Virus record (IMG/VR): IMGVR_UViG_2585427757_000006
Length of the DNA: 64,000 nt
Source of the DNA: a virus
Lineage: Duplodnaviria > Heunggongvirae > Uroviricota > Caudoviricetes
Strand: one strand, 5' to 3'
Positions 606 to 52,290 of the stretch are shown here, in pieces. The notes beneath the pieces are model-generated. The model was not told where the DNA came from and ran no database searches. It saw only the letters and a list, made by a program, of their open reading frames with translations. The stretch's first letter is position 1. Each line of letters begins with the position of its first letter. The position numbers and the translations under genes were made by a program.

Positions 606-781
606 GCCACGACTCCTTTGAAAACGCCTAATGCTGAGTCGAAGACCAGTACTACGGCCAGCGCATTGATCATCACATCATTAACAGGCGCCAGCGCTTT
701 ACGGATTGCCCCTGTGAAGATGCAGTCGAGCACAAAGGCTATCGAGATAATAAGTAACGTGATATCTAATAAAATTTTCAC
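602..781 (-). CDS. possible small hydrophobic protein (59 aa, GTG start), below ORF-track size cutoff
   Basis: Hand-translated frame MKILLDITLLIISIAFVLDCIFTGAIRKALAPVNDVMINALAVVLVFDSALGVFKGVVA; its TGA overlaps the ATG of the downstream secreted-protein gene (ATGA). Confidence 0.25.
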   Translation of the reverse strand: MKILLDITLLIISIAFVLDCIFTGAIRKALAPVNDVMINALAVVLVFDSALGVFKGVVA

Positions 782-820
782 GATAGGTAAATGCTAACTT
801 ATATATTTTTGCTGTAAATA

Positions 821-1096
821 TCACTCAAAAGTGCTGATACCCAAAATGCGCTCAAGATGGGCCGCGTCTTCATCGCTTACCAGCATTGTGTCGTCTACGT
901 ACCAGCAGCTACCGTTGTGCCAACAAACACCGTCATCATCGATATAAATAGAATCCGCATCCATTCCTGTGTATTCAACTAGATTGCGTTCAATTGCCGC
1001 TTGAATTTCTTCATCGTTCAGCCCGTCGCACTTGATCATGAACAACGGGTAAACGTCATAGTCGGTACTAGATGAAATGCGAACCAAAGTCTTCAT
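821..1096 (-). CDS. hypothetical protein (~91 aa; start MKTLVRISS)
   Basis: AAGGAG Shine-Dalgarno 7 nt upstream of the ATG at 1096; ORF-track start at 1159 is probably too long; the recurring dyad motif sits just upstream at 1113-1130. Confidence 0.5.
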   Translation of the reverse strand: MKTLVRISSSTDYDVYPLFMIKCDGLNDEEIQAAIERNLVEYTGMDADSIYIDDDGVCWHNGSCWYVDDTMLVSDEDAAHLERILGISTFE

Positions 1097-1275
1097 GTGT
1101 TTTCTCCTTGTTGGTAAGTACTTATCTATCTTAATGGACGCTATAAGGCGCACAATCATTGTGTTCAGGCTGGTGGAAAGAACTTCTCCAGCGTGTGGTT
1201 GATAGCCTTATCAATGTGCATCAGGTGCCAGACGACCATATCTTTGCTTCCAATGCCGCGAGTGTAGATGAAGTG

Positions 1276-4994
<3,719 letters not shown>

Positions 4995-5008
4995 AATTGT
5001 AAATTCCC

Positions 5009-6172
5009 TTAATCAAAATTCTTCTGTTTCATTGCCTCAGCCGCTTTTTGCAGCGGTCCTTTCAAGGCTTTTTCTAACTTTGTCATCTGCTCTAAGTGCC
5101 ACGCAACCGCTTGGGGCCACGTCTCTTTATTAAACCCATCAGCTTTGGTCGAAAACTGAATACGGCAAGATTTCTTCTCATCCAGCCTCATCCACTCAAG
5201 TTCTGCACCAAAAGCATGTTCAATGTCCTGTTTGGACTGACTCAACAAGTCAAAAAGGTATTTATTCTCTTCGGTAACCCCACGGCTGATCCAAAGCTCT
5301 ACTCGAAGCTCTTTTTGCAGAAATATCAGGTTATACGGACACCCACTTAACCCTGAGCCTGCTGATAACCAGTGATCTTTGCTTGGGCTAATGTTGTTAT
5401 AGAGTTGGCAAACGCTTTTCTGAAACGCCTCTAAGGCACGCTCCCAGTACTCGCGACGCACCGTATGGCGGTTTTTAAGGACCACTTCGGTGGTTTTTTC
5501 TTCCGCTTCCTTGGCATTAATGCCGATCATCAACTCTTTCGCTTCTGGCGTTGGAATGATCTGGTCAATATTAATCAGTAGCTGTTCACCCAGTGAATAA
5601 GGCGTGATTTTGAAGCAGGCAATGCTAATGCCTTGACCCAATAACCACAGCGCGGTGCTGGTCACTTCTTTGCGAAAGTTTGCCGCAACTAGCATAATAC
5701 GCTGGCTGTTACCCAGGTTGAGCTTTAACTCATCCAGATCGGGCGCATCCAAAAATTCACATATTCTCGCCGAAGCACTTGCAGGGGCATTTAACAGGTC
5801 AACCTCTGCTGTTACAGGCTCATAGCGATCTAAGTACTGCTGGTAAATGTCAACTATTTGTGCTTTGGTTAAACTGGCACAGTAAGAGGCATATTTAAGG
5901 GCCTGCCACACCACATCTCGGCCACTGTCGTCCAGCTTATTTTCAATAATGACCAAGTTGCCATCTTTATCCAGTGCCAGTAAATCTAATCGTTCACGGG
6001 TGTCATCAAAGCCATCGAACTCTTTTTGAATAATCAACAACTCTTCACCCAATGCGGAAGGTTCGTGTGCCAACCACTCCTGAAGATGCTTGCGCTCAGT
6101 AAAGCCCAACTCACTGAACTTCTTTGTCCTAACAGGACTAATCCTGTTAGTTTGATGATTTACCGTGAACAT
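5009..6172 (-). CDS. uncharacterised 387-aa protein embedded in the hsd operon; N-terminal PD-(D/E)xK-like nuclease motif
   Basis: Tightly packed between hsdS stop (6182) and hsdR start (4994); motif RLDLLALDKDGNLVIIENKLD resembles a D..E-x-K nuclease core; no Walker A. Confidence 0.5.
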   Translation of the reverse strand: MFTVNHQTNRISPVRTKKFSELGFTERKHLQEWLAHEPSALGEELLIIQKEFDGFDDTRERLDLLALDKDGNLVIIENKLDDSGRDVVWQALKYASYCASLTKAQIVDIYQQYLDRYEPVTAEVDLLNAPASASARICEFLDAPDLDELKLNLGNSQRIMLVAANFRKEVTSTALWLLGQGISIACFKITPYSLGEQLLINIDQIIPTPEAKELMIGINAKEAEEKTTEVVLKNRHTVRREYWERALEAFQKSVCQLYNNISPSKDHWLSAGSGLSGCPYNLIFLQKELRVELWISRGVTEENKYLFDLLSQSKQDIEHAFGAELEWMRLDEKKSCRIQFSTKADGFNKETWPQAVAWHLEQMTKLEKALKGPLQKAAEAMKQKNFD

Positions 6173-6181
6173 ATTCGCGTC

Positions 6182-7462
6182 CTATTGCTCAACCATTTCT
6201 GGGGTGATTTTTATTTTTCCTGTCACGGCGCTGTTGATCAGGGTGGTTTTGTATTCTTTAAGCTTTTCAATCTGCGACTTTTGGATATCAATCGTGCGAT
6301 TCAGATCTGGCTCAATTCCTTCAATGAACGAAATTATTTCTTGAATTTCATCTTTTGGTGGCACTGGAACCAATACACTTGCAAGACGATCCCTTGTTAA
6401 TTTTGGCTGTGCCGCACCAGAAATATATACCGTATAGTCCAATCCGCTTAATAATTCGGCCCAGTATTTAAAACCATGAAATTTTGGCTTAATAATATGT
6501 GCATGGTTATTCACCCAATACTTTCCAGTTGCAACAAAAGCCAATGGTGTTGACTTGCTTAGCAAATTCGCGCCATCTTCAGCGATCAAGATTAAATCTT
6601 CATCAAAGATGTAGTCATCAACATAATCGATAACACCACTTGCTCCGTAATACGGATATACGCCCTGTCTCGACTCTCTCTCAACTGCGCTTATTGGAAC
6701 TCTTCTACTGTTAAGAAACTCAAACGCATATCTCAATGACATTAAGTTCCAATGCGCTGGAATCTTACCAATCCAATCCACACCGGAGTCTTTCATTGGC
6801 ACATTGGGATCAAGCCCTTGGGTCACCGCCTGTTGGATGATGATCTGCTTACGCTCTTTCAGCAGGCTAATTTGCTGCTCTTTGATCGAAATCGCTTCGT
6901 CGATTAGAGCGGTTTTCTTGTCGAGAAAATTTGCAATTAGGGACTGCTCTTCTTCTGAAGGCAGAACAAAAGGAATCACCTTCATCCGTGCTTTTGAAAG
7001 GTCCCACTGACCAATCCTTACACCATCTGATGCACTACCAAAAAACGATACATATAACTTACTGCGTATCGCCCAATTGAAAAACTCAGGATTTATTGCC
7101 TTTGTAAAATCAAAAATAAAATACGCAGGACTTACAATTCCAGTGAACTTTGATACACCGTAAGAACCCTGCCACGCTTTCATTTTATTCATTCCAAATT
7201 GACCTTTCTCAAGCTTTTTATAGCCGCTAAGATCATCTGGTATAAAATTGTGATTTGACTCTTGATTATCCACGTCTCTCTCGATAACACCTTGTTCGCG
7301 TGTTATCGAAAGTAGTGGCAATTCAGGGCAGTTTTTGACCGACACCGGAGATAGGCACGAGCCTAACTTAACCAAGTCCCAATGCTCTGGAATCTCGCCA
7401 ATCCACTCATAACCAGAGTCACTATATTGATCATACTTTAGCGTTGAGGTAATGCTTTCCAT
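6182..7462 (-). CDS. hsdS: type I restriction-modification specificity subunit (426 aa, two target-recognition domains)
   Basis: Size and bipartite architecture; position between hsdM and hsdR; start overlaps hsdM stop. Confidence 0.85.
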   Translation of the reverse strand: MESITSTLKYDQYSDSGYEWIGEIPEHWDLVKLGSCLSPVSVKNCPELPLLSITREQGVIERDVDNQESNHNFIPDDLSGYKKLEKGQFGMNKMKAWQGSYGVSKFTGIVSPAYFIFDFTKAINPEFFNWAIRSKLYVSFFGSASDGVRIGQWDLSKARMKVIPFVLPSEEEQSLIANFLDKKTALIDEAISIKEQQISLLKERKQIIIQQAVTQGLDPNVPMKDSGVDWIGKIPAHWNLMSLRYAFEFLNSRRVPISAVERESRQGVYPYYGASGVIDYVDDYIFDEDLILIAEDGANLLSKSTPLAFVATGKYWVNNHAHIIKPKFHGFKYWAELLSGLDYTVYISGAAQPKLTRDRLASVLVPVPPKDEIQEIISFIEGIEPDLNRTIDIQKSQIEKLKEYKTTLINSAVTGKIKITPEMVEQ

Positions 7463-9891
7463 TAGGCTTCTCCCTGAACTTCCGCCACTTTCACGCCTAA
7501 TATTTGTGCAATCAAACCATCAGCCTTCTGCTCTAGATTGATAATGTCAGTTGCTACTTCTTCAAGACTACGTAATGGCTTATGCAGATAGAAATACTTA
7601 TTGAAGCTGATTTCATAGCCAATTTTTACCGTATCTAGGTTTATCCATGCTTCATCGACATGAGGCTTCACTTCATCTAGGAAGTACTGGTAAATGCTTT
7701 GCTTTAATGGAACAGATTCTGTATCTCGCAGGTCTGAATTGGTCTCGTAAGTGATATACTCGCCTTTTTTACCGCCTTCTGCTGAAGGAACGGGGTAATA
7801 ACCAAAATCTGGCAAGTCAGCGACTTCACACTCATAGCGCTCCAGCAGGTCGTTTAATTTATCACCCGTTAATTTAACTACCTTTTTAACCACTTTCTTG
7901 GCGGTTTCGTCATACCAGCTCACCGCGTGAAGAATGGCATTTTTCTCAGGTGCTGAAAGCTTAATAGCATGGGCTTTTAGCGATTTATCAACTTGGGTTT
8001 TAAAGCTATTGAAGTCATCAAATTCAATGCTACCGATGTCAGCCATCAGCGTTTGTGCAGTTTCAAGCAATGCTTTTAGCGCCAGCCAGTGTTTCACATC
8101 AAGCAGTTTGGCCTTAGCCTTAGCATTGAGACTGATGTCGTTATCTTCACACCAAGAAAGAATGTCTTTCTCGATGGATTTTAAGAAGCTCTTTTTCTGA
8201 TCTGACCCGTAGCCAGTTTTTTCGTAAACACGTTCGCCGTGCTCTGCGTACACGTACTCCATCACTTCACTAAGTTGCTTATCAAAACGCAGTGGGGCTA
8301 TGGCATCTTGAGTAAACTTGGCTTTGCGGCGATCTGGGCGCTCGATAGTGACTTTGTAGTAGCCAAAATCGTCATTGCTGAATACCTTACTGGCGATGCC
8401 AACAGGATCATTGTTTGCATCCAGTGCTCTTTCAACATCCTTACACGCGAGGTAAGTATCGGTAATTTCCGTGATGTGCTCAGGCGCAAATTCGCAGTTT
8501 TTGTTACCTAAGTTCTTGCGCAACTTACGGTAGAGCAAGCTGGCATCAATTAATTGCACCTTACCTTTACGCGCCTCAGGTTTATTGTTGCTCAACACCC
8601 AAATGTAAGTGGTAATGCCAGTGTTATAGAACAGGTTATTAGGTAACTGAACGATGGCATCTAGCATGTCGTTTTCAATGATGAAGCGACGAATATTACT
8701 TTCACCACCGCCCGCATCTCCGGTAAAGAGCGATGAGCCGTTATGAACAGAGGCAATCCGGCTGCCTAATGGACTTACGCTCGGATCTTTCATCTTGTTG
8801 ACCATCTCCATTAAGAAAAGCAGCTGGCCATCACTCGAACGTGGCGTGGCATCCACCACTTCGAGATTTCCCCAATAGTCTTTCAGGCTAACCTTAAAAC
8901 GCGGGTCAATCACATCACTGCCGTCTTTAATGTACTTCTGTTCAGACGCCCAACTCTTACCGTATGGCGGGGTAGACAACATAAAGTCAAAGCGTGAAGC
9001 CGCAAACTCGTCGGTAGACAAGGTTGAGCCTACCTTGATGTTCTCAGGGTTGTTACCTTTGATCATCATGTCCGATTTACAAATCGCGTAGGTCTCGTCA
9101 TTGATCTCTTTGCCGTAAAGGTAAATATCTCGGCTGTCGTTCGGGTATTTCTCTTCAATGAAGTTTTGAGATTCAGTGAGCATACCACCGCTACCACACG
9201 CAGGGTCGTAAACGGTCATGGTCAATGGTAGCTGCTCTTTCACTGGGTCAAAAACCAAGTGTGTCATCAGCTCAATCACTTCCCTAGGTGTAAAGTGCTC
9301 ACCGGCTTCTTCGTTATTCTCCTCGTTGAACTTACGGATCAACTCTTCGAACACGTACCCCATACCCAGGTTAGTAAGGGCTGGCATCTTGTTGCCATCT
9401 GGGTCTTCGATCGTTTCATGAGTTAAGTTGATGTAAGGGGAAACAAACTTTTCGACGACATCAAGAAGGACTTGCTTTGAGGCCATGTGACGAATTTGCG
9501 ACTTGAGGTTAAAGCATTCAATGATTTCTTTAACATTATCGCTAAAGCTAAGCAGGTACTCTTCAAAGTTGGCGAGTAATATCTGTTGGTTATTCGTTGC
9601 GGTGTTGAACAGGGATTTCAGGGTCCATTTAGATGTATTGTAAAAAACATAACCACTAGCCGCCTTCAATGGTTCATCATCAAGCTCCGTGGCTTGCATC
9701 TCTTCTTTTTGGAACTTGACCTCTTCAAGCACGGCTTCTTTGGTGGGTTCAAGTAACGTATCTAAACGTCGTAATACCACCATAGGTAAAATCACATCGC
9801 GGTACTTACCGCGAACGTACACATCACGTAAACAGTCGTCGGCAATGTTCCATATAAATGAGATGAGCTTGTTATGTACACTATGATCCAT
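7462..9891 (-). CDS. hsdM: type I restriction-modification N6-adenine DNA methyltransferase, long form (~809 aa)
   Basis: HsdM N-terminal motif FIWNIADDCLRDVY; SAM motif VYDPACGSGGML; catalytic FDFMLSTPPYG; likely start MDHSV at 9891 (ORF-track start at 9927 is a TTG). Confidence 0.9.
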   Translation of the reverse strand: MDHSVHNKLISFIWNIADDCLRDVYVRGKYRDVILPMVVLRRLDTLLEPTKEAVLEEVKFQKEEMQATELDDEPLKAASGYVFYNTSKWTLKSLFNTATNNQQILLANFEEYLLSFSDNVKEIIECFNLKSQIRHMASKQVLLDVVEKFVSPYINLTHETIEDPDGNKMPALTNLGMGYVFEELIRKFNEENNEEAGEHFTPREVIELMTHLVFDPVKEQLPLTMTVYDPACGSGGMLTESQNFIEEKYPNDSRDIYLYGKEINDETYAICKSDMMIKGNNPENIKVGSTLSTDEFAASRFDFMLSTPPYGKSWASEQKYIKDGSDVIDPRFKVSLKDYWGNLEVVDATPRSSDGQLLFLMEMVNKMKDPSVSPLGSRIASVHNGSSLFTGDAGGGESNIRRFIIENDMLDAIVQLPNNLFYNTGITTYIWVLSNNKPEARKGKVQLIDASLLYRKLRKNLGNKNCEFAPEHITEITDTYLACKDVERALDANNDPVGIASKVFSNDDFGYYKVTIERPDRRKAKFTQDAIAPLRFDKQLSEVMEYVYAEHGERVYEKTGYGSDQKKSFLKSIEKDILSWCEDNDISLNAKAKAKLLDVKHWLALKALLETAQTLMADIGSIEFDDFNSFKTQVDKSLKAHAIKLSAPEKNAILHAVSWYDETAKKVVKKVVKLTGDKLNDLLERYECEVADLPDFGYYPVPSAEGGKKGEYITYETNSDLRDTESVPLKQSIYQYFLDEVKPHVDEAWINLDTVKIGYEISFNKYFYLHKPLRSLEEVATDIINLEQKADGLIAQILGVKVAEVQGEA

Positions 9892-10051
9892 TTTCTTTTC
9901 CTGTTCAGTGTTGGTTGCACCCCACAAAGTTGCTGCAACGGCTTCACTATAAATTTAAAATTCTGTTCTTTCTGTAACGCCTAAATGGCCTCTACATCGT
10001 TCGATTAACTTGTTCTACCCGGCGCTAGATTTAAGTTTATGACACCATAAA

Positions 10052-10100
10052 GTGAATCGCCACAGGTTTAATAGACTGAATCGCCACAGGTTTAACAGAC
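10052..10100. repeat. tandem direct repeat, 2 x ~24 bp (TGAATCGCCACAGGTTTAAYAGAC)
   Basis: Two adjacent near-identical copies in the intergenic region between the lipoprotein gene stop (10124) and hsdM start. Confidence 0.8.
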
Positions 10101-10123
10101 ACCTCAGAGTCATTTAAGATGAC

Positions 10124-10315
10124 TTAAAGAGAGGTGTACAGCTCGGTATTCAGACCAGTCCACTGACGGCCAACGCCGACAACTTCACCGATACCTTTGT
10201 CTTCACCCAATTTGTTTACTTTGATGCCAACGTACCCAGGCTCAACACGATCGCAGCCTGTAAGACCCATTGTGCAAACAGCAGCCACGATCACTGCCAG
10301 TAAACCTTTCTTCAT
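10124..10315 (-). CDS. small lipoprotein (63 aa)
   Basis: Signal peptide with lipobox LTGC (MKKGLLAVIVAAVCTMGLTGC). Confidence 0.5.
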   Translation of the reverse strand: MKKGLLAVIVAAVCTMGLTGCDRVEPGYVGIKVNKLGEDKGIGEVVGVGRQWTGLNTELYTSL

Positions 10316-41880: not shown

Positions 41881-42114
41881 TCATTCAGCATTGCAACCGA
41901 TTGATGAGAAAGCACCTACTCCAACCCATCGCCAGTTATAGATGCTACCCGCTTTGTATAAGGTATAGTCGTTCACTTTTTTAACAGCATATATGGGTAT
42001 GACTGTCTCCTGTCCACCAATGATAGCTTCACCATAACATATAGGTGTCGGCAATTTCTGGCAGCCAGTAAGAGAGAGAACAACAGCTATTGTTAGAAAT
42101 AATCTTTTCATCAT
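41881..42114 (-). CDS. small lipoprotein downstream of the tail-fibre genes (possible Llp/Cor-like exclusion lipoprotein)
   Basis: Signal peptide with lipobox LTGC; 77 aa. Confidence 0.45.
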   Translation of the reverse strand: MMKRLFLTIAVVLSLTGCQKLPTPICYGEAIIGGQETVIPIYAVKKVNDYTLYKAGSIYNWRWVGVGAFSSIGCNAE

Positions 42115-42121
42115 TTACTCA

Positions 42122-42730
42122 TCAGTTATACAGATTTCTATTTATTACCGGTACTCTGCCATTTACGCTAAAACTATGGCCGCCATTAAGTTGGTTTACG
42201 AATATCGAGCTAACAGTATTTCCATATGCCGCATATCCATAAACCATTGTCATGGCTCCGCCCGGTACTGGAACAGCGAACACATTCGCATATGTTGGGA
42301 TTATCGCTGGAGGGTAATCAAAAACATGCCCTCCAGAGCTGTTCCACTCCGTATTATTAAGAAAGGTAAATGAAAGTGGGATATTTGCCGTATTATAGAT
42401 TTCCCCCCCTTGTGCATTGAAAAAACTCATGCCCCAAGTTTCTTTTTTGGCTATACCTTTCGAAAATACGTATATCGTGGCACTAGAGTCGCTACCCTGA
42501 CCTCCGAAACTGTAAATCACCTGGTTGTTACGCACTATTCTGTTGGCTATTAATGAAACAGCTTTCGAATAGGCAACAAAAATAATCGGTGAACGATCTG
42601 GAGATATTTTGGTGTTAAACTCTGTCCCGCCGGACAAAGAAACAACCTGCTTTCTCTGAAAAACGATAGGAGACAAAGAAGGAGACATCCAGACCTTCCC
42701 GTCAGATCGATATATCTTGCTTCCGTACAT
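42122..42730 (-). CDS. tail-fibre-associated protein (202 aa)
   Basis: ORF track; follows the tail-fibre gene; Gly/Ser/Asn-rich. Confidence 0.4.
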   Translation of the reverse strand: MYGSKIYRSDGKVWMSPSLSPIVFQRKQVVSLSGGTEFNTKISPDRSPIIFVAYSKAVSLIANRIVRNNQVIYSFGGQGSDSSATIYVFSKGIAKKETWGMSFFNAQGGEIYNTANIPLSFTFLNNTEWNSSGGHVFDYPPAIIPTYANVFAVPVPGGAMTMVYGYAAYGNTVSSIFVNQLNGGHSFSVNGRVPVINRNLYN

Positions 42731-42984
42731 TATTTTTGAAAAACCAATATGTTTAAATTACCACTAGCTCCAGACCACGAAATGGTATTTCCAGAAACCG
42801 TAAGACTTGTGTACTTTCCATTGGTTACGTCCATTATGTAATAGTCGATTCCCAATCCCGCCTCAACCTCATATGTTCTACTTCCTGAACCAGAGGGAGT
42901 AAAATAATCGAGGTAATAAACAGGGGCCAACGCATTGACCATCTCCTGTCTTGATGGCGACCAAACCTGTGCACCATAGCTCAT
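42730..42984 (-). CDS. tail-fibre-associated protein (84 aa)
   Basis: ORF track; start overlaps neighbour. Confidence 0.4.
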   Translation of the reverse strand: MSYGAQVWSPSRQEMVNALAPVYYLDYFTPSGSGSRTYEVEAGLGIDYYIMDVTNGKYTSLTVSGNTISWSGASGNLNILVFQK

Positions 42985-43044: not shown

Positions 43045-46000
43045 TTATTCTTTAGGTGAATTTAACTTCGTTTCAAGCTCCTCAACCCTTTTGGTCAATT
43101 GCTGAATATGATGAATGAGTGGTACAACCAAACGCTCATACATCACTCCTTCAGCGACCATACCATTTGAGGAAATATCTTCTGGAGAATCATTATTTGT
43201 TGGTTCACGCCAATGGACATATTGCGGGGCAATCTCACCAACCTCTTCAGCAATAAGGCCGTAATACCCCCAATCCTTTCGGTCACCTCGACAAATTGAA
43301 CGATACCAAACAGGTCTTAATGACAAAAGTTCATCAGCATATCGATCTTGTAATGTTTCAATATCCTTTTTATAGCGCCTTGAAGACGTTGAACGCCAAA
43401 CTGTATTGATACCTGGGTTTGGATCAATGTACATATTGGCACCGCTAGTAGTTGTGCCAATATCCCATATAGCAAACCCTCCACTACCGCCTGATTTGAC
43501 AACCAGTGTTTCAGCAACAATATCCAGGTTGCCACTATAGCCTGTCAGTGATGATCTGCTTGCATAGGAGCTTAGAAGGTTTGCTACCTCTGTTTTCGTG
43601 TAAGCATTAAGGTTAGCCGCAGTCAAAGTTATATCGGCAGAGCCATCAAACGCCACACCAGCAATTTTCCTTGCTGTCTGCAATTTTGTGGCGGTTGCGG
43701 CATTACCAGTAGTGTTCTGATTACCAGTTGTATTCACACCAGGGATTGAATCCTTAGCGGTATATACCTGCGCCCACGCTGACCATGCTGCACCTGTGTT
43801 ATCTCTTCGTGAGCGAATGAAAACTGGCGCATGTGCACCGCTCGTACCACTCCAGCCAATAAGCAACTCGCCCTCACCAGCAGCACTCGCACCTTTCATG
43901 TGCAATACGTTGCCATACGTGGTCGGGTAGCTATTGTTGTACGCCTCATACATTTGAATGCCAGCAGTGCCTTGAGTAGAGCCGCTTAACGCCGTAACTC
44001 GGCCACGAGATACCAATGTATTAATGTTGATATCGCCTGAACCATCAAACTTAACACCATTGATGTTTCTCGCTGTTTGCAACTTCGTAGCTGTTGAAGC
44101 ATTACCGTTCAAACTACCATTTACGCCACCAGTCACATTTAGTCCATTACCAATTGATACAGCACCGCTGGTATTATTAATTGTAATCGGTCGCAAACCG
44201 TTCCATGAACCTAATGTGTCTCCTGATGCTGTTAGCAGGAAATATGTGTTCGCCCCATCATTACGGATAAAGAACCCATAGTTACCGTAAGCAATGCGGA
44301 AACCATTTGCATATTTTGAAACGATCTCACCAGAAGACGTTACCCCCCCAGATAATGTGCCACCTGAAAGCGGTAATGCTCCTACATCAGAAGCTGTTGG
44401 TTTGTTTCTGGTGTTATAAGAACGACGCCAGCCTGGCGCATAATCACTTCCATTGTACACATAAATAAATTCCGCATTATTAACACCACCATGACCCGAT
44501 GTTGTTGTCGTTGTAACACGAATAGTGTAATGGCTTGTTGCCTTATTACTAAACACCTCAATCACGGAACCAGATAGATCGATCCTACCGCAACCAGTGT
44601 CGTCTATATAATTATTGTTGGCGTAAGCCCATGAGCACCGTGCAATCCAATATTTGTTTGAAAATGCACCCTGATTATTTAGCCACGTTATAAACTGAGC
44701 AGTCGTAAATGCTGTTCCGTTACCACTATTTAACCATCCGGCGGCAGCGGTTGGTGCGTTTATATCAGCCGGCTGAGGCATAAATCCAGTCGTGTAAACC
44801 TGCTCCCAACCACTTTCAAAACCATAGCCATCTCTTGAGGAACGGTAGAACAGACCACCATTTTTATAGTGAGCTTTAATTTGAAGCGTACGGCAACTAC
44901 CTACACCGGTATAAAAGTTGGCAAGAATATAACTAGCGCCTGCTCTAGTTACATTGTAAGCACCAGATTCAGCATTCCACGGCACGCCACCATCAGCATC
45001 CGCATATGTATCCGTTGCCCTTCTGGCAAAAGCAGCCACATGCGCGGCGGTTAAAGTGATATCTTTGGAACCATCAAACTCAACACCAGAAACCCGTCTT
45101 GGCGTTTGCAGCTTTGTTGCTGTTAATGCATTACCGTTCAGACTTGCGGACAGTTTGGTTCCAATAACCAGTTCGCCGGTTGCGTTATCAATAGCAAACG
45201 GTCTTAATGTATTCCAGCCACCATAAACATCACCTTGATTGGTAAGCAGCAGGTAAGTTTTAGCGCCATCATTACGCCATAATGCCCCATACTCCCCACC
45301 TATCATTCGAATCTGATTACCACCACGCGCTACAATTTCGTCTGTGGCAAAAAGTTTTTTGCACGACAAGTTATCGTTAACGATTAACGAATGAGACTCA
45401 TAAAAACCACGCCCACTCTTAAAATCAAGGATAACGTCCGCCGCGATACATTCAATCGCCGGATTTGTTGCCCCAAACTTATAGGTCGTATCATTAACAA
45501 CGAGATCCGCACCAGGTGCGGATATTGACAGGCCATCTTCAATAAACGCAAAAACAGGGAAAGCAGCACCATCAACATAGAACACAGAGCGCAAATCATC
45601 GCCCTTATTACTCATCATTATTGAGTGGATGGCTCGTTCATTGTTTTGATATTGCCAGAACATTCCATAAGCATAACGCCCCCTGTCAGTCCAGCCACCA
45701 GGCATAACAAATCCGTTAAACTCGCAGTTATTCATCGGATCGCCTGCGGTTCGCGTTGCCGTGGTGATAATGACCCTTGATGCCAGTTCGCTTACTGAGC
45801 CAGCAGAACGCATAACAACAACAGGGTAATATTTTCCAGATGTTGCACCTGCAGGAGCGTTAACCCGCACATAACGCATACCACGCTTATCAGCAAAGTC
45901 TGTTTTACTGACCGCGTTAATGTTGTTCAGGAAGCGTCCCTTATCGGGTATATCAGCGCCGTTCTGGTCTTTCTGCAGACGTTTCTCTGCATTGTCATAG

Positions 46001-47466
46001 GCTGATTTTACTGCCTTTGGCGTTGCCGCCAGCGTCTCAGACGTACTGTTGGTCGCACTGCTGAGCTGTACTATCCCCTTTTTCGTCGTACTTGCATCCT
46101 CAAGCGCCACGGCGGATGCAATATCCTCTGCCCGTTTTGCCGCTGTCTCGGCGCGCGTTGCCGCGGATTCCGCCGTACTTTTGCTCTGTGCTGCCGCCGT
46201 CGCACTGCCAGCTGCCTCTGTCGCCTTCGTGGATGCTGTCGTGGCGCTGCCCTTCGCTGCGGACGCTTGTCTGGTCGCCTCATCTTTTGAAGCAGACGCC
46301 GATGATGCCGATGACGCTGCCGAACTGGCGGACGATGCGGCTGCCGTTTTTGAGGATTCTGCACGGGTTTCCGACGCTTTCGCGTTCGTTTCGGATGTCT
46401 TCGCTGCGGAAGCAGACCTCGCTGCTGCGCTGGCCTGTTCAGTGGCTTCGCCAGCCTTCGTTGTGGCTGTTGAAGCAGACGATGCGGCACTTTCTGCCGA
46501 TTTTCCGGCGGCGGTGGCACTGGCTGAGGCCTGCCCGGCACTTGTTGACGCGGCACTTGCAGACGACGCAGCCGCTGTTTTTGAGCCTGCCGCAGCCGAG
46601 GCGCTCTGTCCCGCTGCCGTTTCAGAAGACCTGGCGTTCGTCTCGGACGTTTTTGCCGCCTTCGCGGAATTTCCTGCCGCCGTTGCCGAGGAAGCGGCAT
46701 TACTGGCGCTCGAGGCTGCGTTCGTTTCTGATGATTTCGCTGCCTCTTTTGAGGCCGCCGCATCCCGGGCTGAGGTGGCAGCTTCTGACGCCTTCGTGGT
46801 CGCGGTGGATGCAGAAGTGGCTGCAGATTTTTGTGACGCTGCAGCATTCGTTTCAGATTTTTTCGCAGCAGTTGCACTCGCACTTGCGGCACTTTGTGAG
46901 GATGCCGCAGCGGATGCACTTTGAGACGCTTGAGAGGCTTTTTCTCCAGCGGCATTGGCGCTTTTTGCTGCTGCGGCAGCACTGGCCGCCGCCTCACGAG
47001 CTTTGTCGCCAGCAGCATCAATCGCGTCAGTGTTATTTTTATACCACTCAACGTTTTCGTTGTGCTCGTTGACGATCTGCATTAGCGGCTTAACGGTCAC
47101 TTCTGTACCGTCTTCACGCTCGATTGTCACCTCATCCAGCGCAGTCAACCAACTGCGTATGGACTTGGAATCAGCCGACATACGCGACATTAGCGCAGTA
47201 AAACGCGCGCTAAACTGTGTTAAGTCGCCTTCATAGGTCGTAATGATTCGGCACGGAACCTCAGACTGAGTTTCGCCGGTATAAGGTTCTGAGAGAACAA
47301 TATTCGTATCGCTTATTACGCGCTTGATCTCATACAGCTTATTGTCGGGGCCAATGACGATCATCCCCGGCAACACACCATTAGCTGTTACGTTCCAGGC
47401 TGTCCCTGCCCCAACCAGAGTATTGCTACCATGTGTAAATGTGATAGTACCTTCCCTGTACCACAT
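43045..47466 (-). CDS. long tail fibre protein (1473 aa) with Ala/Ser-rich repeat region, three tail-fibre repeat units and a C-terminal self-cleaving chaperone (peptidase S74-like) domain
   Basis: ~320-aa low-complexity SETNA-type repeats; three ...TATKLQT.R...GV.FDGS.DI... units; C-terminal SSRRYKKDI and YYGLIAEEVGEIAPQYV. Confidence 0.85.
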   Translation of the reverse strand: MWYREGTITFTHGSNTLVGAGTAWNVTANGVLPGMIVIGPDNKLYEIKRVISDTNIVLSEPYTGETQSEVPCRIITTYEGDLTQFSARFTALMSRMSADSKSIRSWLTALDEVTIEREDGTEVTVKPLMQIVNEHNENVEWYKNNTDAIDAAGDKAREAAASAAAAAKSANAAGEKASQASQSASAAASSQSAASASATAAKKSETNAAASQKSAATSASTATTKASEAATSARDAAASKEAAKSSETNAASSASNAASSATAAGNSAKAAKTSETNARSSETAAGQSASAAAGSKTAAASSASAASTSAGQASASATAAGKSAESAASSASTATTKAGEATEQASAAARSASAAKTSETNAKASETRAESSKTAAASSASSAASSASSASASKDEATRQASAAKGSATTASTKATEAAGSATAAAQSKSTAESAATRAETAAKRAEDIASAVALEDASTTKKGIVQLSSATNSTSETLAATPKAVKSAYDNAEKRLQKDQNGADIPDKGRFLNNINAVSKTDFADKRGMRYVRVNAPAGATSGKYYPVVVMRSAGSVSELASRVIITTATRTAGDPMNNCEFNGFVMPGGWTDRGRYAYGMFWQYQNNERAIHSIMMSNKGDDLRSVFYVDGAAFPVFAFIEDGLSISAPGADLVVNDTTYKFGATNPAIECIAADVILDFKSGRGFYESHSLIVNDNLSCKKLFATDEIVARGGNQIRMIGGEYGALWRNDGAKTYLLLTNQGDVYGGWNTLRPFAIDNATGELVIGTKLSASLNGNALTATKLQTPRRVSGVEFDGSKDITLTAAHVAAFARRATDTYADADGGVPWNAESGAYNVTRAGASYILANFYTGVGSCRTLQIKAHYKNGGLFYRSSRDGYGFESGWEQVYTTGFMPQPADINAPTAAAGWLNSGNGTAFTTAQFITWLNNQGAFSNKYWIARCSWAYANNNYIDDTGCGRIDLSGSVIEVFSNKATSHYTIRVTTTTTSGHGGVNNAEFIYVYNGSDYAPGWRRSYNTRNKPTASDVGALPLSGGTLSGGVTSSGEIVSKYANGFRIAYGNYGFFIRNDGANTYFLLTASGDTLGSWNGLRPITINNTSGAVSIGNGLNVTGGVNGSLNGNASTATKLQTARNINGVKFDGSGDININTLVSRGRVTALSGSTQGTAGIQMYEAYNNSYPTTYGNVLHMKGASAAGEGELLIGWSGTSGAHAPVFIRSRRDNTGAAWSAWAQVYTAKDSIPGVNTTGNQNTTGNAATATKLQTARKIAGVAFDGSADITLTAANLNAYTKTEVANLLSSYASRSSLTGYSGNLDIVAETLVVKSGGSGGFAIWDIGTTTSGANMYIDPNPGINTVWRSTSSRRYKKDIETLQDRYADELLSLRPVWYRSICRGDRKDWGYYGLIAEEVGEIAPQYVHWREPTNNDSPEDISSNGMVAEGVMYERLVVPLIHHIQQLTKRVEELETKLNSPKE

Positions 47467-47559: not shown

Positions 47560-50500
47560 TCACAGACGGCCAATTCTTACTCGTAGGACGTTGTTATCGT
47601 CATAAACGTCAATCCGCTGACCATTTATAACCAATCGCCCATTGCCGCCGCTATTACCGTTGATCTCCAGCGTTCCATTTTTGCCGAACCGCCATCCAGA
47701 TCTACCGCTAACAAAATTGGTAGATTGCAGATCGCCTACTTTTGCATTGGTGATTGTGCCATCCTTGATATACGCTCCATTCATATAGGCGATACTGTTT
47801 TCGATAACAAATGGCGTTGTGATCTTCCCGTTAACAGAGTTGACCAAACCAAACCTGTCCGCCTGAACCAAAAACTGAGATAGCCCAGTGGTGTCAATAC
47901 CAAGCGCAATACCGGCAACATACTTCTGCCCTCCGCTCGTTGAAGTCTCCATTTTCAACGTCCACGCGGTTGACACTTTTTTGTTGGTATCAGCAATAGC
48001 TGTTGCCTGCTGTTGAATTGTCGCGGTATTTCCATTCACCTCTGCTTTCAGAGTATCGATTCGCCCACTCAGAGCATTATCTGCCTGCGTTCTCGCTTTC
48101 GTTTCAGTTGTGACCGCCGCGGAAATGTTGGCTGCCGTTTGAGACTCTAAGTTTGTGATTTGAGTCGCCAATGCAGCATCTTGCTCTGTACGCGTTTTCG
48201 TTTCGGTTGCTACAGCCGCTTTAATATCCTCTTTGTATTGAGAGGTCAGCTTGGTGATCTGAGACGACAACGCCGAGTCAGCATCAGTTCGAGCCTGCGT
48301 TTCAACTGCAACGGCCGCACTAATATCTTTCGCTGTCTGTGCTTTTAAACTTGAAACCTCTTTTGTTAAAGCGGTATCACCATCTGCACGAGCCGTTGTT
48401 TCTCTGGCAAGAGACGCCTTGAGATCATTAGCTTTTGCTGTAAGAGACGTAATCTGGGTAGACAATGCACTATCGGCATCAGTCCTTGCTTTTGTCTCTA
48501 CAGCAACCGCTGCGGCAATATCAGTTCCGGTTTGTGCTCGCAGGCTGTTAATTTCTCGTGAGAGCGCCTGGTCAGCACTTGCTCTGGCCTCCTGCTCCTG
48601 AGTGATGGCAGCGGATATATCACCGTCAACCTTTGACTGAAGCTGGTTTATTTGTTTGGCTAACGCAGAGTCCCCGCTTGCTCGGGCCTCCTGCTCACTA
48701 CGTATTGCAGCAGAAATATCATCATCAACCTTTGCCTGAAGTTGGGTGATCTGGCTTGCCAGAGCCGAATCTTCCGTTACTCGGGCTTCTTGCTCTTCCT
48801 TAATAGCTGCGACGATATCGTTGCTTACTTTCGACTCAAGCTGAGTGATCTGTGTCGTCAGAGCTTCATCGGCAGATGTACGAGCCTCCTGCTCTGTACT
48901 AATCGCCGCGCTGATATCTCCTTCAAACTTAGATTGCAGCTGAGTGACACGCTTTGCCAACGCTTCATCGCCATCGGCACGAGCGGTGGACTCTTCCAGA
49001 ATACTGGCCTTAATGTCTTCGCCAATTTCTACGCGAATTTCCTCAACCTTCGTGGCCATTGCAGACATATCATCAGCAAAGGTTTTCTGTGTTGTTGCGA
49101 TCTTCGCGTTATTGACCATCTGCTTGTGCTGGTCTTCATCTTGACGAAGAGCCAGGTCAATATTTGTTTTGGCCAAAGCCTCAATGTTCGTAGTCAGTTC
49201 TGCACTGGCACGATCGACCTCTGCAACCGTCTTTTTCATTTCTTCAACGGCAGCGGAGCTTTCCTCTACCGTTGACTGCAACACTTCCAGTTGTTTAGCG
49301 TTTGCAGCATCCCCTTCAACACGAGCCTCGCTTTCCTTAGCAATAAGAGCCGCCGCTTCGTCTCTTGCAGCCTTTATTGCCTCGACTGTATTAGCGAGAG
49401 CTTTATCGTGTTCAGATACGGTGTTTTCGATTTCAACAATTGCAGCATCAGTAGCATCAATTTTTTCAAACGCTTCATTGACCTTGTCGATCGTTGCCGA
49501 AACCTCACCTTTAAGCTCGGTTTGTGCGTTCTCCAAAGCATCGCTACGCTCGTTGAATTTTATTTCAAAACCCGCGAGGTTATCGCTGAACTGCTTATCT
49601 AATTCAGCTATATCTTCCTTAACGTCGTTTACCGACCCCTCCAAAGATTCGACGCTCTGGTTGATATGCTCATTTAACTCGTCAACTGCTTCTTGAGAGA
49701 CTTTGCTGTTGATGTCCTCAAGCAGAGCCTGACCAAGCTCGGAAGATGTAATTTTGCCAGTCAGGAACGACAGTACATCGCGAGTTGTCGCCTCTGTTCC
49801 CAAGTTTGAGTTCGGAGGACTTAACATACCTCGCTTGTTCGATGCTCGAACCCAGTAATACCACGTTTCGCTATCCCCAAGACCAGCATGTGTAAAGGTG
49901 GTGCTTGCAGACTCTGCGATCAGTTTCGCCGTATCCAGATTGTTGGTCTGGGATGCGTAAACATTAATGTGATCAAGGTCTACCGAATCTGGATTAACCC
50001 AATTCAGTATCACATTACGATAGTCTCCAACGGCCGTTAATGACGTTGGGGCATCTGGCGGTGTCATTGTGCCCAACACCTGATAAACGGTACTGATAAT
50101 CTCTGTTTTTTTACCGTTGAATGAAACCGCATACAGCTGGAAGTCGTAGCGTCCATTCTCCGCGACATTAACGATTTCGTATTGCTCTTCGGTTACACGC
50201 GCCGATTGCCAGTTCGATACATTGTTTTCATCAGAACGTCGCCAACTGATCCAATACTCTGGAGATTTCCCTTCCCATGTTGCAGTCAGTTTTACTGACA
50301 GGTTGCCCGGGCTTGAGAGGTAAGTCCCTTCAGTGATTTGCAAATTAGACGGCTTGGAGTAAGTCGGGTCCAATACCGTCGTATTCTGCGGGATAAGCGT
50401 TGCACCATTGTCGATCGCCTCATATTTAGACGGATTGTTTTCAACAGCGGTGATGTCAAAGCTACCCGACGTTTCCCCCTGAGCGATGTTAACGATGCGA

Positions 50501-52290
50501 ACGCGCATAGGTTCGAGATCTGGTTCTGTAATTGTCCAGACACCGTTCAAAACAGGCGTTTCCGCTGACGACAGGGCTTTTGAAAACGTAACCTTTGTTA
50601 TGTTTTCGCCAGTTTCAAGAACATCGCGCTCAACGATTTTGCCTTCCTGATTCAATATCCGAATAAAGCTGCCGCTTTTAGCTAACGACACAGGCGCATC
50701 GAGAGTGATGCTGTTTTTGGTAAACTCCACAATTCGACCGGAGTTACGTTTACCTGCACGATATTTGTTCTGAATCAGAACGGTTTCACCAGGCATCAGA
50801 AATGAGGCGTCTAAGCCGGCAGTAAATGTAATTACATCCGACTCCATTCTGGCGGTATACAAAAGCCACAAACCAACTCGGTGAGCCTGGCCTCGGCTTG
50901 TACATCCAAATGCTACGACTTCTGTTTTACGCTCACCATAACGGCGCATTGCGTCCTGATCTTCAACGTATTCGATGTTTTGCTTATAACCGTCCTCCTT
51001 GTTGTTGTAGGTTACGAGCGCAACGGATGGGCGATCTTTACGCGCAGAACCTTTATAGGTAAACAGTCCATCTTTGACGTTGGAGTTGGTAAACATCATT
51101 ACCGGATCTGATGGGCTATCCTGCATGATGTTAACCATGCCACCAGCCCAAAACACCATGCCGCGGAATGCACCGGCAATATCCTGAATTAATCGGTATG
51201 CGTCTTGTCGACTGGTGATCTGCGTATTGATTGCAAAGCGTTTCTCTTTACCCCCAAAGCCATCATCGACCTCTTCGTCACAATATCGACCAATCTGGTA
51301 GAGCTGGCCGAGGTCAATCATGGATTCCGACACAAATTGCCCAAGACCATACCGAGTATTGGTAAGCAAATCGTAGAGAATCCACGCAGGGTTTGAAGAA
51401 GACAACAGCTTAAAAGTACCGTCCCATACGCCGACATAAGTATTGGTGTATTCGTTGTAGTTTGACGGTACTCGGATTTTGATACCGCGCACCAAATACG
51501 AACGGGAAGGCATTGTGCTACCAAACTGCTCTGAATTGACCTTCAAGCCAACAAGAGCAGAGTTAGGGTAGTTCATTGGCGTGTCGACAATCTCACCGAT
51601 GGAATCAACCCATGTGTCGTTGTAGAGGTACTGGCTACTATTATCATCTGTAAGACGAATCACCCTAACCTTGTATGCACGACCAGGCTTAGGCAGTTTC
51701 AGCTCATAGCTACGGTAATACACGCCGGTTTTCTTTGCCGTTAGCGTGATATCAACGCTTTTCTCACCTTCTGCCACTACATCAGAAAATGTTGCGTCTG
51801 CGTTGGCGATCTGGAATTTGTACTTCACCGTAGTGTCATTTGTATCGCCAGAGCTTTTATCAACGCTACGTAAAGAGGGGAATTTCATGATGACACGAAC
51901 GCGATCAGCTTCATCGTTATCGATTGAAACCGTAACGTCGTGGGTTTTTTTAAGGTGAATATTTACGGACTTAGGCGTTTCAACAAAATCAAAACCAGCC
52001 ATTGGCGTCTGGTCTTGTGAGCCGTCACGAAAATCCCATGTAATACCGCTGAAGTTGGAAGAGCCATCTTCATTCAAGATCGGTAAATCGTCGATGAAGA
52101 TCGACTTTGCGCCATTTACCAGGCCACCGATAACCCCCTCGCCAAGAAGGTCGAGGATGGCTGCCATAGCACGAGAATTGACAGTATCATCAGCTTCAAC
52201 CGGGGTACGGCTGGAGCTTTTACTTTTCTTGCCACCAGCACCGGCAATAAGAAGCGGTAATTTTTTCTTCTTGAACTGTTCCATGTCCAA
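47560..52290 (-). CDS. lambda J-like central tail fibre / host-specificity protein (1576 aa) with a long coiled-coil repeat array
   Basis: AFGCTSRGQAHRVGLWLLYT and FLTGKITSSELGQALLE align with lambda J as recalled; ~15 tandem ~25-aa repeats; J-like C-terminal block. Confidence 0.9.
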   Translation of the reverse strand: MDMEQFKKKKLPLLIAGAGGKKSKSSSRTPVEADDTVNSRAMAAILDLLGEGVIGGLVNGAKSIFIDDLPILNEDGSSNFSGITWDFRDGSQDQTPMAGFDFVETPKSVNIHLKKTHDVTVSIDNDEADRVRVIMKFPSLRSVDKSSGDTNDTTVKYKFQIANADATFSDVVAEGEKSVDITLTAKKTGVYYRSYELKLPKPGRAYKVRVIRLTDDNSSQYLYNDTWVDSIGEIVDTPMNYPNSALVGLKVNSEQFGSTMPSRSYLVRGIKIRVPSNYNEYTNTYVGVWDGTFKLLSSSNPAWILYDLLTNTRYGLGQFVSESMIDLGQLYQIGRYCDEEVDDGFGGKEKRFAINTQITSRQDAYRLIQDIAGAFRGMVFWAGGMVNIMQDSPSDPVMMFTNSNVKDGLFTYKGSARKDRPSVALVTYNNKEDGYKQNIEYVEDQDAMRRYGERKTEVVAFGCTSRGQAHRVGLWLLYTARMESDVITFTAGLDASFLMPGETVLIQNKYRAGKRNSGRIVEFTKNSITLDAPVSLAKSGSFIRILNQEGKIVERDVLETGENITKVTFSKALSSAETPVLNGVWTITEPDLEPMRVRIVNIAQGETSGSFDITAVENNPSKYEAIDNGATLIPQNTTVLDPTYSKPSNLQITEGTYLSSPGNLSVKLTATWEGKSPEYWISWRRSDENNVSNWQSARVTEEQYEIVNVAENGRYDFQLYAVSFNGKKTEIISTVYQVLGTMTPPDAPTSLTAVGDYRNVILNWVNPDSVDLDHINVYASQTNNLDTAKLIAESASTTFTHAGLGDSETWYYWVRASNKRGMLSPPNSNLGTEATTRDVLSFLTGKITSSELGQALLEDINSKVSQEAVDELNEHINQSVESLEGSVNDVKEDIAELDKQFSDNLAGFEIKFNERSDALENAQTELKGEVSATIDKVNEAFEKIDATDAAIVEIENTVSEHDKALANTVEAIKAARDEAAALIAKESEARVEGDAANAKQLEVLQSTVEESSAAVEEMKKTVAEVDRASAELTTNIEALAKTNIDLALRQDEDQHKQMVNNAKIATTQKTFADDMSAMATKVEEIRVEIGEDIKASILEESTARADGDEALAKRVTQLQSKFEGDISAAISTEQEARTSADEALTTQITQLESKVSNDIVAAIKEEQEARVTEDSALASQITQLQAKVDDDISAAIRSEQEARASGDSALAKQINQLQSKVDGDISAAITQEQEARASADQALSREINSLRAQTGTDIAAAVAVETKARTDADSALSTQITSLTAKANDLKASLARETTARADGDTALTKEVSSLKAQTAKDISAAVAVETQARTDADSALSSQITKLTSQYKEDIKAAVATETKTRTEQDAALATQITNLESQTAANISAAVTTETKARTQADNALSGRIDTLKAEVNGNTATIQQQATAIADTNKKVSTAWTLKMETSTSGGQKYVAGIALGIDTTGLSQFLVQADRFGLVNSVNGKITTPFVIENSIAYMNGAYIKDGTITNAKVGDLQSTNFVSGRSGWRFGKNGTLEINGNSGGNGRLVINGQRIDVYDDNNVLRVRIGRL

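Follow-up and report, generated by a model that had tools for sequence, protein, structure and literature searches.

A modular side tail fibre with a predicted self-releasing Peptidase_S74 chaperone in an SSU5-like phage-plasmid

We analyzed a 64,000-nucleotide stretch of Caudoviricetes DNA (IMG/VR record IMGVR_UViG_2585427757_000006; hereafter the window, meaning this whole stretch), focusing on a single unbroken open reading frame (ORF) of 1473 codons on its minus strand, and conclude that its product is very likely a side fibre, attached laterally to the tail of an SSU5-like siphovirus that is kept as a ~110-kb plasmid in Escherichia coli. We directly observe the ORF itself, its domain content, the heptad register of its Ala/Ser-rich region, its homologies, and the conservation of a Ser/Lys pair in its C-terminal domain. 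The fibre is built entirely of known modules (from lambda, Mu, T4, T5 and F-type pyocins) and is already in databases under a generic name; the only mildly new point is a possible F-pyocin-type attachment in a bona fide phage.

Results

Gene, neighborhood and element

The fibre ORF opens with an ATG 93 nt past the stop of a 1576-amino-acid (aa) J-like gene and is preceded by an AAGGAG Shine-Dalgarno sequence, and we take this start codon to be correct because homologues open with the same MWYREGT. The protein matches PHROG tail fibre families (E-value, E, down to 0), which together with the intact ORF and the domain content described below (Table 1) bears out an earlier identification of a 1473-aa tail fibre made from the letters of the DNA alone (hereafter the original prediction). 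At the DNA level the gene is best matched by ~110-kb, non-mobilizable plasmids of E. coli and Shigella and by the phages CMS-2020a, Cyrano and SSU5, which identifies the element as an SSU5-like phage-plasmid. Genes follow in the order J-like gene, fibre, 84-aa ORF, 202-aa ORF and cor, with holin and endolysin genes after cor in the close relatives pTW10722 and SSU5. Judged by its place beside a J-like central fibre and by its F-pyocin-type N-terminal anchor, the protein is more specifically a side fibre.

NCBI/Logan already contains the exact fibre protein, and a near-identical one, WP_349664960.1, goes under the name "tail fiber domain-containing protein". We also observed that the RefSeq coding sequence of the fibre in pTW10722_119 (locus region 6001-10299) starts at locus position 6385, 128 codons past the MWYREGT start. 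Database members of the fibre cluster include proteins of 978, 1275 and 1345 aa. Such internal start calls by annotation pipelines mean that the N-terminal anchor is often missing from database entries.

Table 1 Features of the fibre gene, its upstream neighbor and overlapping ORFs (residues refer to the fibre protein)
Feature	Position in window	Strand	Evidence
Complete ORF of the side tail fibre (1473 aa and stop codon)	43045..47466	minus	ATG start, no internal stop
N-terminal small beta-barrel, residues 2-76, probable tail-tip anchor	47239..47463	minus	profile match and AlphaFold2 (AF2)
Two helices, hairpin and start of long helix (possible "stem"), residues 77-150	47017..47238	minus	AF2, low to moderate predicted local distance difference test score (pLDDT)
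Ala/Ser coiled-coil shaft, residues 155-455, 43 uninterrupted heptads S-A-(S/T)-x-A-A-x	46102..47004	minus	Fourier analysis and register table
Phage_fiber_2 repeat (PF03406), residues 459-499, GIVQLSSATNSTSETLAATPKAVK	45970..46092	minus	fragment Pfam E 1.2e-21, 76.5 bits, cut-off 22
Fold-unassigned domain common to lambdoid Stf, residues 500-660	45487..45969	minus	98% identity to PhiR34_1 Stf
Gp34_trimer copy 1 (PF21446; triple beta-helix/beta-prism shaft module), residues 661-759	45190..45486	minus	Pfam E 2.7e-28
TATKLQT...FDGS.DI unit 1, residues 782-803	45058..45123	minus	motif search
gp37_C-like small domain (PF12604), residues 824-915	44722..44997	minus	27.9 bits, cut-off 22.5
Homologue of Mu S/S' residues 202-329, residues 902-1030	44377..44763	minus	phmmer against PDB 8ju3_A, domain E 5e-36
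Gp34_trimer copy 2 (PF21446), residues 997-1096	44179..44478	minus	Pfam E 2.8e-32
TATKLQT unit 2, residues 1125-1146	44029..44094	minus	motif search
Small domain paralogous to residues 804-893, residues 1147-1236	43759..44028	minus	internal duplication; no Pfam match
TATKLQT unit 3, residues 1258-1279	43630..43695	minus	motif search
Distal tip of mature fibre, presumed receptor-binding end, residues 1280-1360, predicted cleavage Thr1360-Ser1361	43387..43629	minus	conservation
Peptidase_S74 intramolecular chaperone (PF13884), residues 1361-1473, predicted release as 13.3 kDa	43048..43386	minus	Pfam over residues 1361-1417
J-like central fibre, 1576 aa, inferred docking partner	47560..52290	minus	Pfam FNIII-A_GpJ, Phage-tail_3, Phage_Tail_Tip
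Overlapping long ORF, 291 aa	46049-46924	plus	ORF list
Overlapping long ORF, 326 aa	46071-47051	minus	ORF list
Overlapping long ORF, 326 aa	46092-47072	plus	ORF list

N-terminal barrel and its candidate docking partner

A profile of the fibre N-terminus matches residues 3-74 of the F2-pyocin side fibre PyoF13 (25ve_A, E 2.7e-6) and also the N-terminus of the distal tail protein gp20 (23gd_B, E 9.5e-6). In the AF2 model, six strands at residues 7-71 form a barrel, followed by two helices, a hairpin and then a long helix, all with moderate confidence. A Foldseek search with this model returned generic small beta-barrels, none at E <= 0.001, from a library probably older than the F2-pyocin entries. 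Conservation of residues 1-159 extends across SSU5-like elements from E. coli, Enterobacter and Yersinia pestis. In BLASTP, residues 1-150 align with neither lambda orf-401 nor the PhiR34_1 Stf N-terminus, and no Ig-like collar domain of the lambda StfN type was found.

The best PDB match of the adjoining J-like protein is the F2-pyocin central fibre PyoF10 (25vf_A, E 2e-153), with lambda J at E 3e-127. It is longer than lambda J (1576 vs. 1132 aa), the excess being a proline-free helical region: residues 830-1420, ~590 residues without Pro, carry about nine 33-residue repeats of the form DISAAI..EQEAR...D.AL..QI.QL.SKV. As a separate observation, in pTW10722_119 (locus positions 828-2629) the J-like gene is interrupted by IS100 (istA/istB) and that of the present window is intact; the pTW10722_119 phage-plasmid is probably defective, its J-like gene being split by IS100.

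In the F2 pyocin, the central fibre carries the side fibre on its helical shaft (PMC13455828), and N-termini like that of PyoF13 had earlier been reported from diverse phages, in genes that follow the one for the central fibre (bioRxiv 10.1101/2021.02.16.431561). In the related F7 pyocin, a segment of the central fibre switches from a trimeric alpha-helical form to another fold (PMC12874032). Against this background, SSU5-like phage-plasmids may hang their side fibres on the J-like helical shaft through a PyoF13-like barrel, a reading that we put forward tentatively.

About equally plausible is an attachment of the kind described for Ur-lambda and T5-like phages (PMC12617516, PMC13455828), in which the fibre would attach to a collar around the distal tail protein or the tube, formed either by its own N-terminus or by a separate collar protein. 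The barrel's match to gp20 fits such a collar, as do the generic barrels returned by the fold search and the end of PyoF13 sequence similarity at residue 76. That similarity is limited to the ~75-residue barrel and excludes the stem, and taken with the 23gd_B match and the non-significant fold search, this means that the docking site could be elsewhere than on the J-like shaft. The collar reading is opposed, however, by the lack of any detectable resemblance between the N-terminus and the StfN collar domain of lambda, and by an N-terminal best match to PyoF13. Weighing both at roughly even standing, we cautiously prefer docking on the J-like shaft, because the product of the adjoining J-like gene is most similar to the F2 central fibre and its helical shaft is very long.

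C-terminal chaperone and predicted self-cleavage

At the other end of the protein, Peptidase_S74 is detected at residues 1361-1417 with 26.9 bits in the whole protein and 30.6 bits in a fragment (cut-off 22), where the original prediction had proposed a peptidase S74 chaperone signature and named this Pfam search as a check. The proposed assignment holds: the Pfam score lies above the curated cut-off, a Ser/Lys pair is invariant, and the modelled fold agrees. The motif SSRRYKKDI begins at residue 1361 and YYGLIAEEVGEIAPQYV occupies residues 1401-1417. Across 34 homologues (31-99% identical), Ser1359, Ser1361, Ser1362, Tyr1365 and Lys1366 are invariant, as are the motifs RPVWYRS, GxIAEE and GVxYxR. 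The catalytic-type Ser1361 stands at the start of the domain, preceded by Thr1360 and followed five residues on by Lys1366, the same spacing as Thr1263-Ser1264...Lys1269 in T5 pb1. In that protein the Thr1263-Ser1264 bond is cut, with Ser1264 activated by Lys1269 and an S1264A variant left uncleaved, and an uncleaved chaperone prevents inhibition of adsorption (PMC4690869).

Comparisons at the level of profiles and folds agree with this assignment. A profile of the C-terminal alignment matches the C-terminus of the L-shaped tail fibre 8hqz_d (E 3.8e-5), block-mean pLDDT in the AF2 model is 81-93 from about residue 1375, and the best Foldseek match is the MyRF ICA domain 7dc3 (E 1.5e-4, probability 1.0), with 3gud and 3gw6 also found, all three being intramolecular chaperones, a class whose solved domains combine an alpha/beta part with a long C-terminal helix. 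In the distal tip region, the motif TTTSGAN...RSTSS is conserved across the 34 homologues, with low monomer AF2 confidence there. Cleavage is predicted to yield a 140.5-kDa mature chain (residues 1-1360) and a 13.3-kDa chaperone.

We consider it improbable that the domain is a non-cleaving remnant kept on the mature fibre as a trimerization or tip domain. Such a remnant would be in keeping with a Pfam score of only 27-31 bits, but Ser1361 and Lys1366 are invariant down to 31% identity together with the motifs RSTSS.RYK, RPVWYRS and GLIAEEV, the Thr-Ser...Lys spacing is that of the T5 pb1 cleavage site, and in T5, for which upstream sensor residues (Arg1250 and Asp1239) are also described, receptor binding is blocked by an uncleaved chaperone (PMC4690869).

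We also observed that in the T1-like phage Jahat_MG145 (locus positions 686-3627) the homologous S74 module is a separate 231-aa ORF ("chaperone of endosialidase"), two genes past a 651-aa tail fibre gene and unfused to a long fibre.

An Ala/Ser-rich coiled coil

The original prediction had also pointed to ~320 residues of nearly pure Ala, Ser, Thr, Lys and Glu around 46050-47000, and the composition of residues 151-460 (46087-47016 in the window) agrees, with Ala at 39%, Ser at 23%, Thr at 11%, Lys at 7% and Glu at 6.5% (~87% in sum). The accompanying label of low complexity is right as to biased composition and wrong as to mere low complexity, since the stretch is a strict 43-heptad coiled coil. 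The Fourier power of Ala positions reaches 33.2 at period 3.5 and 17.7 at 7.0, compared with a maximum of 9.8 in 100 shuffles, and residues 155-455 written in rows of seven give 43 heptads without a stutter, with Ser at position 0 in 33/43, Ala at position 1 in 30/43 and Ala at position 4 in 42/43.

Two segments of the coil are 58% and 72% identical (BLASTP) to parts of the Ala-rich half of lambda orf-401, itself the N-terminal half of the frameshifted stf gene, and residues 269-897, which include the coil from residue 269 onward, show 98% identity to Stf from the lambdoid phage PhiR34_1. Ur-lambda Stf was described by cryo-electron microscopy and tomography (cryo-EM/ET; PMC12617516) as a trimer whose N-terminal collar domain (residues 1-91) is joined by a linker to a proximal coiled coil (102-393), with a hinge and then the distal part beyond it. 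By these alignments the Ala/Ser stretch is the homologue of the lambda Stf proximal coiled coil (residues 102-393), and at ~0.15 nm per residue we infer a rod of ~45 nm.

An assembly error in the Ala-rich region, which the original prediction had named as a possible refutation, is excluded on three counts. Tandem Repeats Finder reported no DNA tandem array in the fibre gene scoring >46; the coil DNA recurs in independent genomes, being 95-96% identical in many independently sequenced lambdoid phages and 94% in sibling plasmids; and the differences fall mostly at third codon positions of the fibre frame (34/44 vs. pTW10722, 76/121 vs. lambda).

Overlapping reading frames

Three long ORFs in other frames overlap the coil (Table 1), and all three can be read, as originally proposed, as spurious by-products of its Ala-rich composition. 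We analyzed codons in the coil frames using pTW10722, lambda and SSU5. The +1 sense frame and the antisense frame that shares wobble positions with the fibre are open because Ala, Ser and Thr codons seldom make stops there, and codon shuffles are open as often as the real sequence; in lambda an antisense orf206b is annotated at the same place in the coil DNA. The sense-strand ORF 46071-47051 shows 5 synonymous vs. 39 non-synonymous changes against relatives and hence no protein-level conservation; ORF 46049-46924 has 2 stops vs. 1.8 expected, the conservation test being blind there as its wobble positions are common with the fibre frame.

The third ORF, 46092-47072, lies in an antisense frame with 0 stops vs. 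8.3 expected, and zero was reached in 0/2000 synonymous-codon shuffles. This frame is stop-free because an NCT codon never precedes a codon starting with A (0/55, vs. 31/150 before other codons). T-A codon junctions (T ending one codon, A starting the next) stand at an observed/expected ratio of 0.25 in the coil and 0.17 in the lambda segment, compared with 0.86-1.16 in the rest of the fibre gene and 0.88 in the J-like gene, and a weaker avoidance of NCT before A is present throughout the fibre gene. The ORF has synonymous:non-synonymous ratios of 3:41 and 17:104 against relatives, with no protein-level conservation; in the diverged SSU5 coil its frame is closed by 9 stops. We rejected a real antisense gene in the coil given the lack of protein-level conservation, the T-A junction depletion as the cause of openness, and the closed frame in SSU5, and we read the stop-free frame as a compositional quirk, the strength of the T-A depletion in the lambda-type coil being not fully explained.

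That the Ala/Ser stretch is an artefact or a disordered linker, with an overlapping ORF as the real gene, is very hard to credit: its extreme composition, the three overlapping ORFs of 291-326 codons, the improbably stop-free antisense frame and the annotated orf206b would all fit, but the heptad register is exact through 43 repeats, many independent genomes share the coil DNA, which has no tandem repeat, at 94-96% identity, substitutions sit mainly at fibre-frame third positions, most of them changing the amino acid when read in the +1 sense or the register-2 antisense frame, the antisense frame carries 9 stops in SSU5, and the homologous Ur-lambda segment was resolved as a coiled coil.

Shaft modules and internal duplication

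Pfam was scanned on the whole 1473-aa protein and then on fragments. The whole-protein scan reported only Gp34_trimer and S74, and Phage_fiber_2 and gp37_C surfaced in the fragment scans, probably because the biased coiled coil suppresses them in the whole-protein scan. Phage_fiber_2, a family named in the original prediction, is present at residues 459-499; at the TATKLQT units, the fragment scan found neither it nor any other Pfam model matching any of the three.

Sequence searches against the PDB extend this modular picture. Mu tail fibre S (8ju3_A) matches the whole fibre protein at E 2.4e-74 (phmmer; 5yvq, E 1e-44), with Mu S residues 91-172 aligning with the Phage_fiber_2 region (query 438-518) and residues 324-421 resembling residues 812-909, around the gp37_C-like domain, in addition to the Mu S/S' homologue in Table 1. 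Gp34_trimer copy 2 aligns with T4 gp34 residues 1026-1116 (9x3r_M, 4uxe, 5nxf; E 1e-22), a part of gp34 described as a triple beta-helix around the P4 beta-prism domain (PMC5537660). Residues 500-660 had no Pfam or PDB sequence match and fall only in PHROG families 36614, 6578 and 745. NCBIfam gave no match for the fibre or for the two ORFs downstream of it.

The protein has exactly three copies of the unit TATKLQT.R...GV.FDGS.DI, located at residues 782, 1125 and 1258, the last being the third copy that had been proposed. The internal duplication proposed with it is also real, but its length is ~190 aa rather than the ~90 aa first given: residues 707-893 and 1044-1236 are 37% identical over 193 columns (E 2e-31), each copy comprising a Gp34_trimer domain, a TATKLQT unit and a further small domain. 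The stretch around the third unit (1251-1291) aligns with the first unit (E 6e-13).

Mosaic structure of the fibre gene

Nucleotide comparisons divide the gene into segments of different affinity. Against pTW10722_119, the closest plasmid, identity is 94% over gene nucleotides 1-1478 and 98% over 2332-4422, with a middle part that is unalignable as DNA; against lambdoid phages, nucleotides ~536-2651 are 95-96% identical. In protein terms, residues 1 to ~175 are specific to the SSU5 group, residues ~179-884 have ~96% DNA identity to lambdoid prophage stf genes, and residues ~778-1473 are 98% identical to sibling E. coli phage-plasmids. On these alignments the fibre gene is a recombinational mosaic of phage-plasmid and lambdoid-prophage modules. 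The right boundary of the segment that diverges from pTW10722 (residue 768 in the protein; nucleotide 2332, codon 778) falls a short way before TATKLQT unit 1, a position that fits the old idea of conserved fibre motifs as recombination joints.

Downstream genes and exchange of fibre ends

In the region covering 42122-42984 (minus strand) and 41881-42114, two ORFs of 84 and 202 aa lie between the fibre gene and cor; they are assigned to PHROG families 557 ("outer membrane protein") and 425 ("membrane associated protein"). These are the only matches of the ORFs downstream of the fibre, in which neither a Caudo_TAP or Gp38 domain nor any other Pfam match was found, whereas in PhiR34_1 the stf gene is followed by a Caudo_TAP (Tfa) gene. 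The ORF pair is also present in SSU5 and pTW10722, with the SSU5 homologue of the 202-aa protein 76% identical, and in T1-like Drexlerviridae homologues of that protein with 26-32% identity are encoded next to J. The cor of the window and that of pTW10722 are 100% identical. The two ORFs are possibly exclusion or moron genes. A role as fibre accessories like PyoF14 and PyoF15 was considered and is unsupported: sizes of ~100 and ~75 aa would be expected, the ORFs are kept in SSU5 despite a different fibre end and an extra adhesin gene, and in the T1-like Jahat_MG145 their homologues stand beside J, away from the fibre gene.

The fibre end itself varies within the group. In SSU5 (locus positions 4995-9313) the fibre has S74 at its end (E 6e-11) and the next gene encodes a 178-aa Gp38_N adhesin, a gene without counterpart in the present window, and the Cyrano fibre is without S74, so that the fibre end behaves as a swappable cassette in the SSU5-like group. 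The SSU5 arrangement is similar to that of T2-type phages, which pair a processed gp37 with a gp38 adhesin.

Discussion

Our results suggest how such a fibre might be assembled and used. Three fibre chains would associate, and the S74 domain (1361-1473) would trimerize and template the folding of the distal, beta-structured tip. Once the tip has folded, Ser1361, activated by Lys1366, would cut the Thr1360-Ser1361 bond, and departure of the 13-kDa chaperone would expose the receptor-binding end of the 1360-residue, 140-kDa mature chain. A chaperone that releases itself in this way would make a separate Tfa-type assembly gene unnecessary. The shaft would be a chain of trimeric modules, namely the 43-heptad coil (~45 nm), Phage_fiber_2, the two ~190-aa modules and a Mu-S-like domain, with the N-terminal barrel (2-76) fixing the fibre to the tail tip, probably on the J-like helical shaft as in the F2 pyocin. 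The fibre may then make the initial, reversible contact with the cell surface, which would give it a part in setting host range.

Several points weigh against this account. The Pfam score of the S74 domain is modest (27-31 bits), a single-sequence PDB search with the C-terminus reached only E 0.027, the Foldseek E-values of the phage entries 3gud and 3gw6 are weak (0.05-1), and monomer AF2 models have a mean pLDDT of only 63-64 with a poorly modelled tip. Trimeric coiled coils do not usually have a core as small as one of Ala and Ser. The trimeric state of the fibre, its cleavage, where it attaches and its binding of a receptor are all inferred.

For a fibre family that occurs in hundreds of phage-plasmids of E. 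coli, Shigella, Enterobacter and Yersinia, the analysis supplies a domain map at residue level together with a predicted site of cleavage. It also shows the middle of the fibre to have been exchanged with lambdoid prophage stf genes, which bears on the evolution of host range in phage-plasmids able to carry resistance genes. If docking on the J-like shaft is correct, this design, so far seen only in the F2 pyocin, would be a normal phage design and no tailocin peculiarity, and a lambda-Stf-type shaft with an S74-tipped distal end could ride on a different anchor. There are also practical traps, in that gene callers often drop the N-terminal anchor, and the Ala-rich coil both masks a Pfam domain and yields spurious ORFs.

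Comparison with known fibres

The closest parallel for the shaft is the Stf of lambda and lambdoid phages such as PhiR34_1, whose gene likewise follows J and whose long Ala/Ser coiled coil is homologous; the 98% identity to PhiR34_1 Stf over residues 269-897 takes in the Phage_fiber_2 repeat and the first Gp34_trimer module, and the lambda coil DNA also bears long antisense ORFs. Unlike lambda Stf, the present fibre does not begin with the StfN collar domain, its distal half is different and without a gp37-like His-rich tip, and it ends in an S74 chaperone where the lambdoid fibres rely on a separate Tfa (Caudo_TAP) gene. In addition, no lom gene lies between J and the fibre in the present window.

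With the L-shaped tail fibre of T5-like phages (pb1; 8hqz_d, "L-shaped tail fiber assembly") the present protein shares the character of a long lateral siphovirus fibre, a C-terminal S74 chaperone with a Thr-Ser...Lys cleavage motif and, in the case of 8hqz_d, an Ala-rich helical stretch. The present tip, however, is far shorter (~80 residues) and bears no relation to the pb1 "bullet" domain, and the T5 fibre hangs on a separate collar protein (PMC13455828).

The F2-pyocin pair PyoF13 and PyoF10 resembles the present system in the N-terminal barrel, in the position of the gene downstream of the central fibre gene, and in a central fibre with a long helical shaft to which the adjoining J-like protein is closest. 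Everything past residue 76 of the present fibre is unrelated to PyoF13, which has 363 aa and an R-pyocin-like receptor-binding domain and needs PyoF14 and PyoF15, whereas the two ORFs downstream here are of other sizes and have homologues that are not tied to the type of fibre tip.

Further shaft domains recall Mu S/S' (8ju3, 5yvq; Mu S residues 91-172, 202-329 and 324-421) and T4 gp34 (4uxe, 5nxf; residues 1026-1116), which differ in belonging to contractile-tailed phages, in their N-termini and tips, and in needing separate chaperones.

Finally, gp021 of the Salmonella phage SSU5 differs in its length (1260 aa), in its diverged middle and distal parts and in the Gp38_N adhesin gene directly after it, but it shares the N-terminal anchor (~77% DNA identity) and likewise combines an Ala-rich heptad coil with a Gp34_trimer domain and, at its C-terminus, Peptidase_S74, and the same 84-aa ORF, ~200-aa ORF and cor lie downstream of it.

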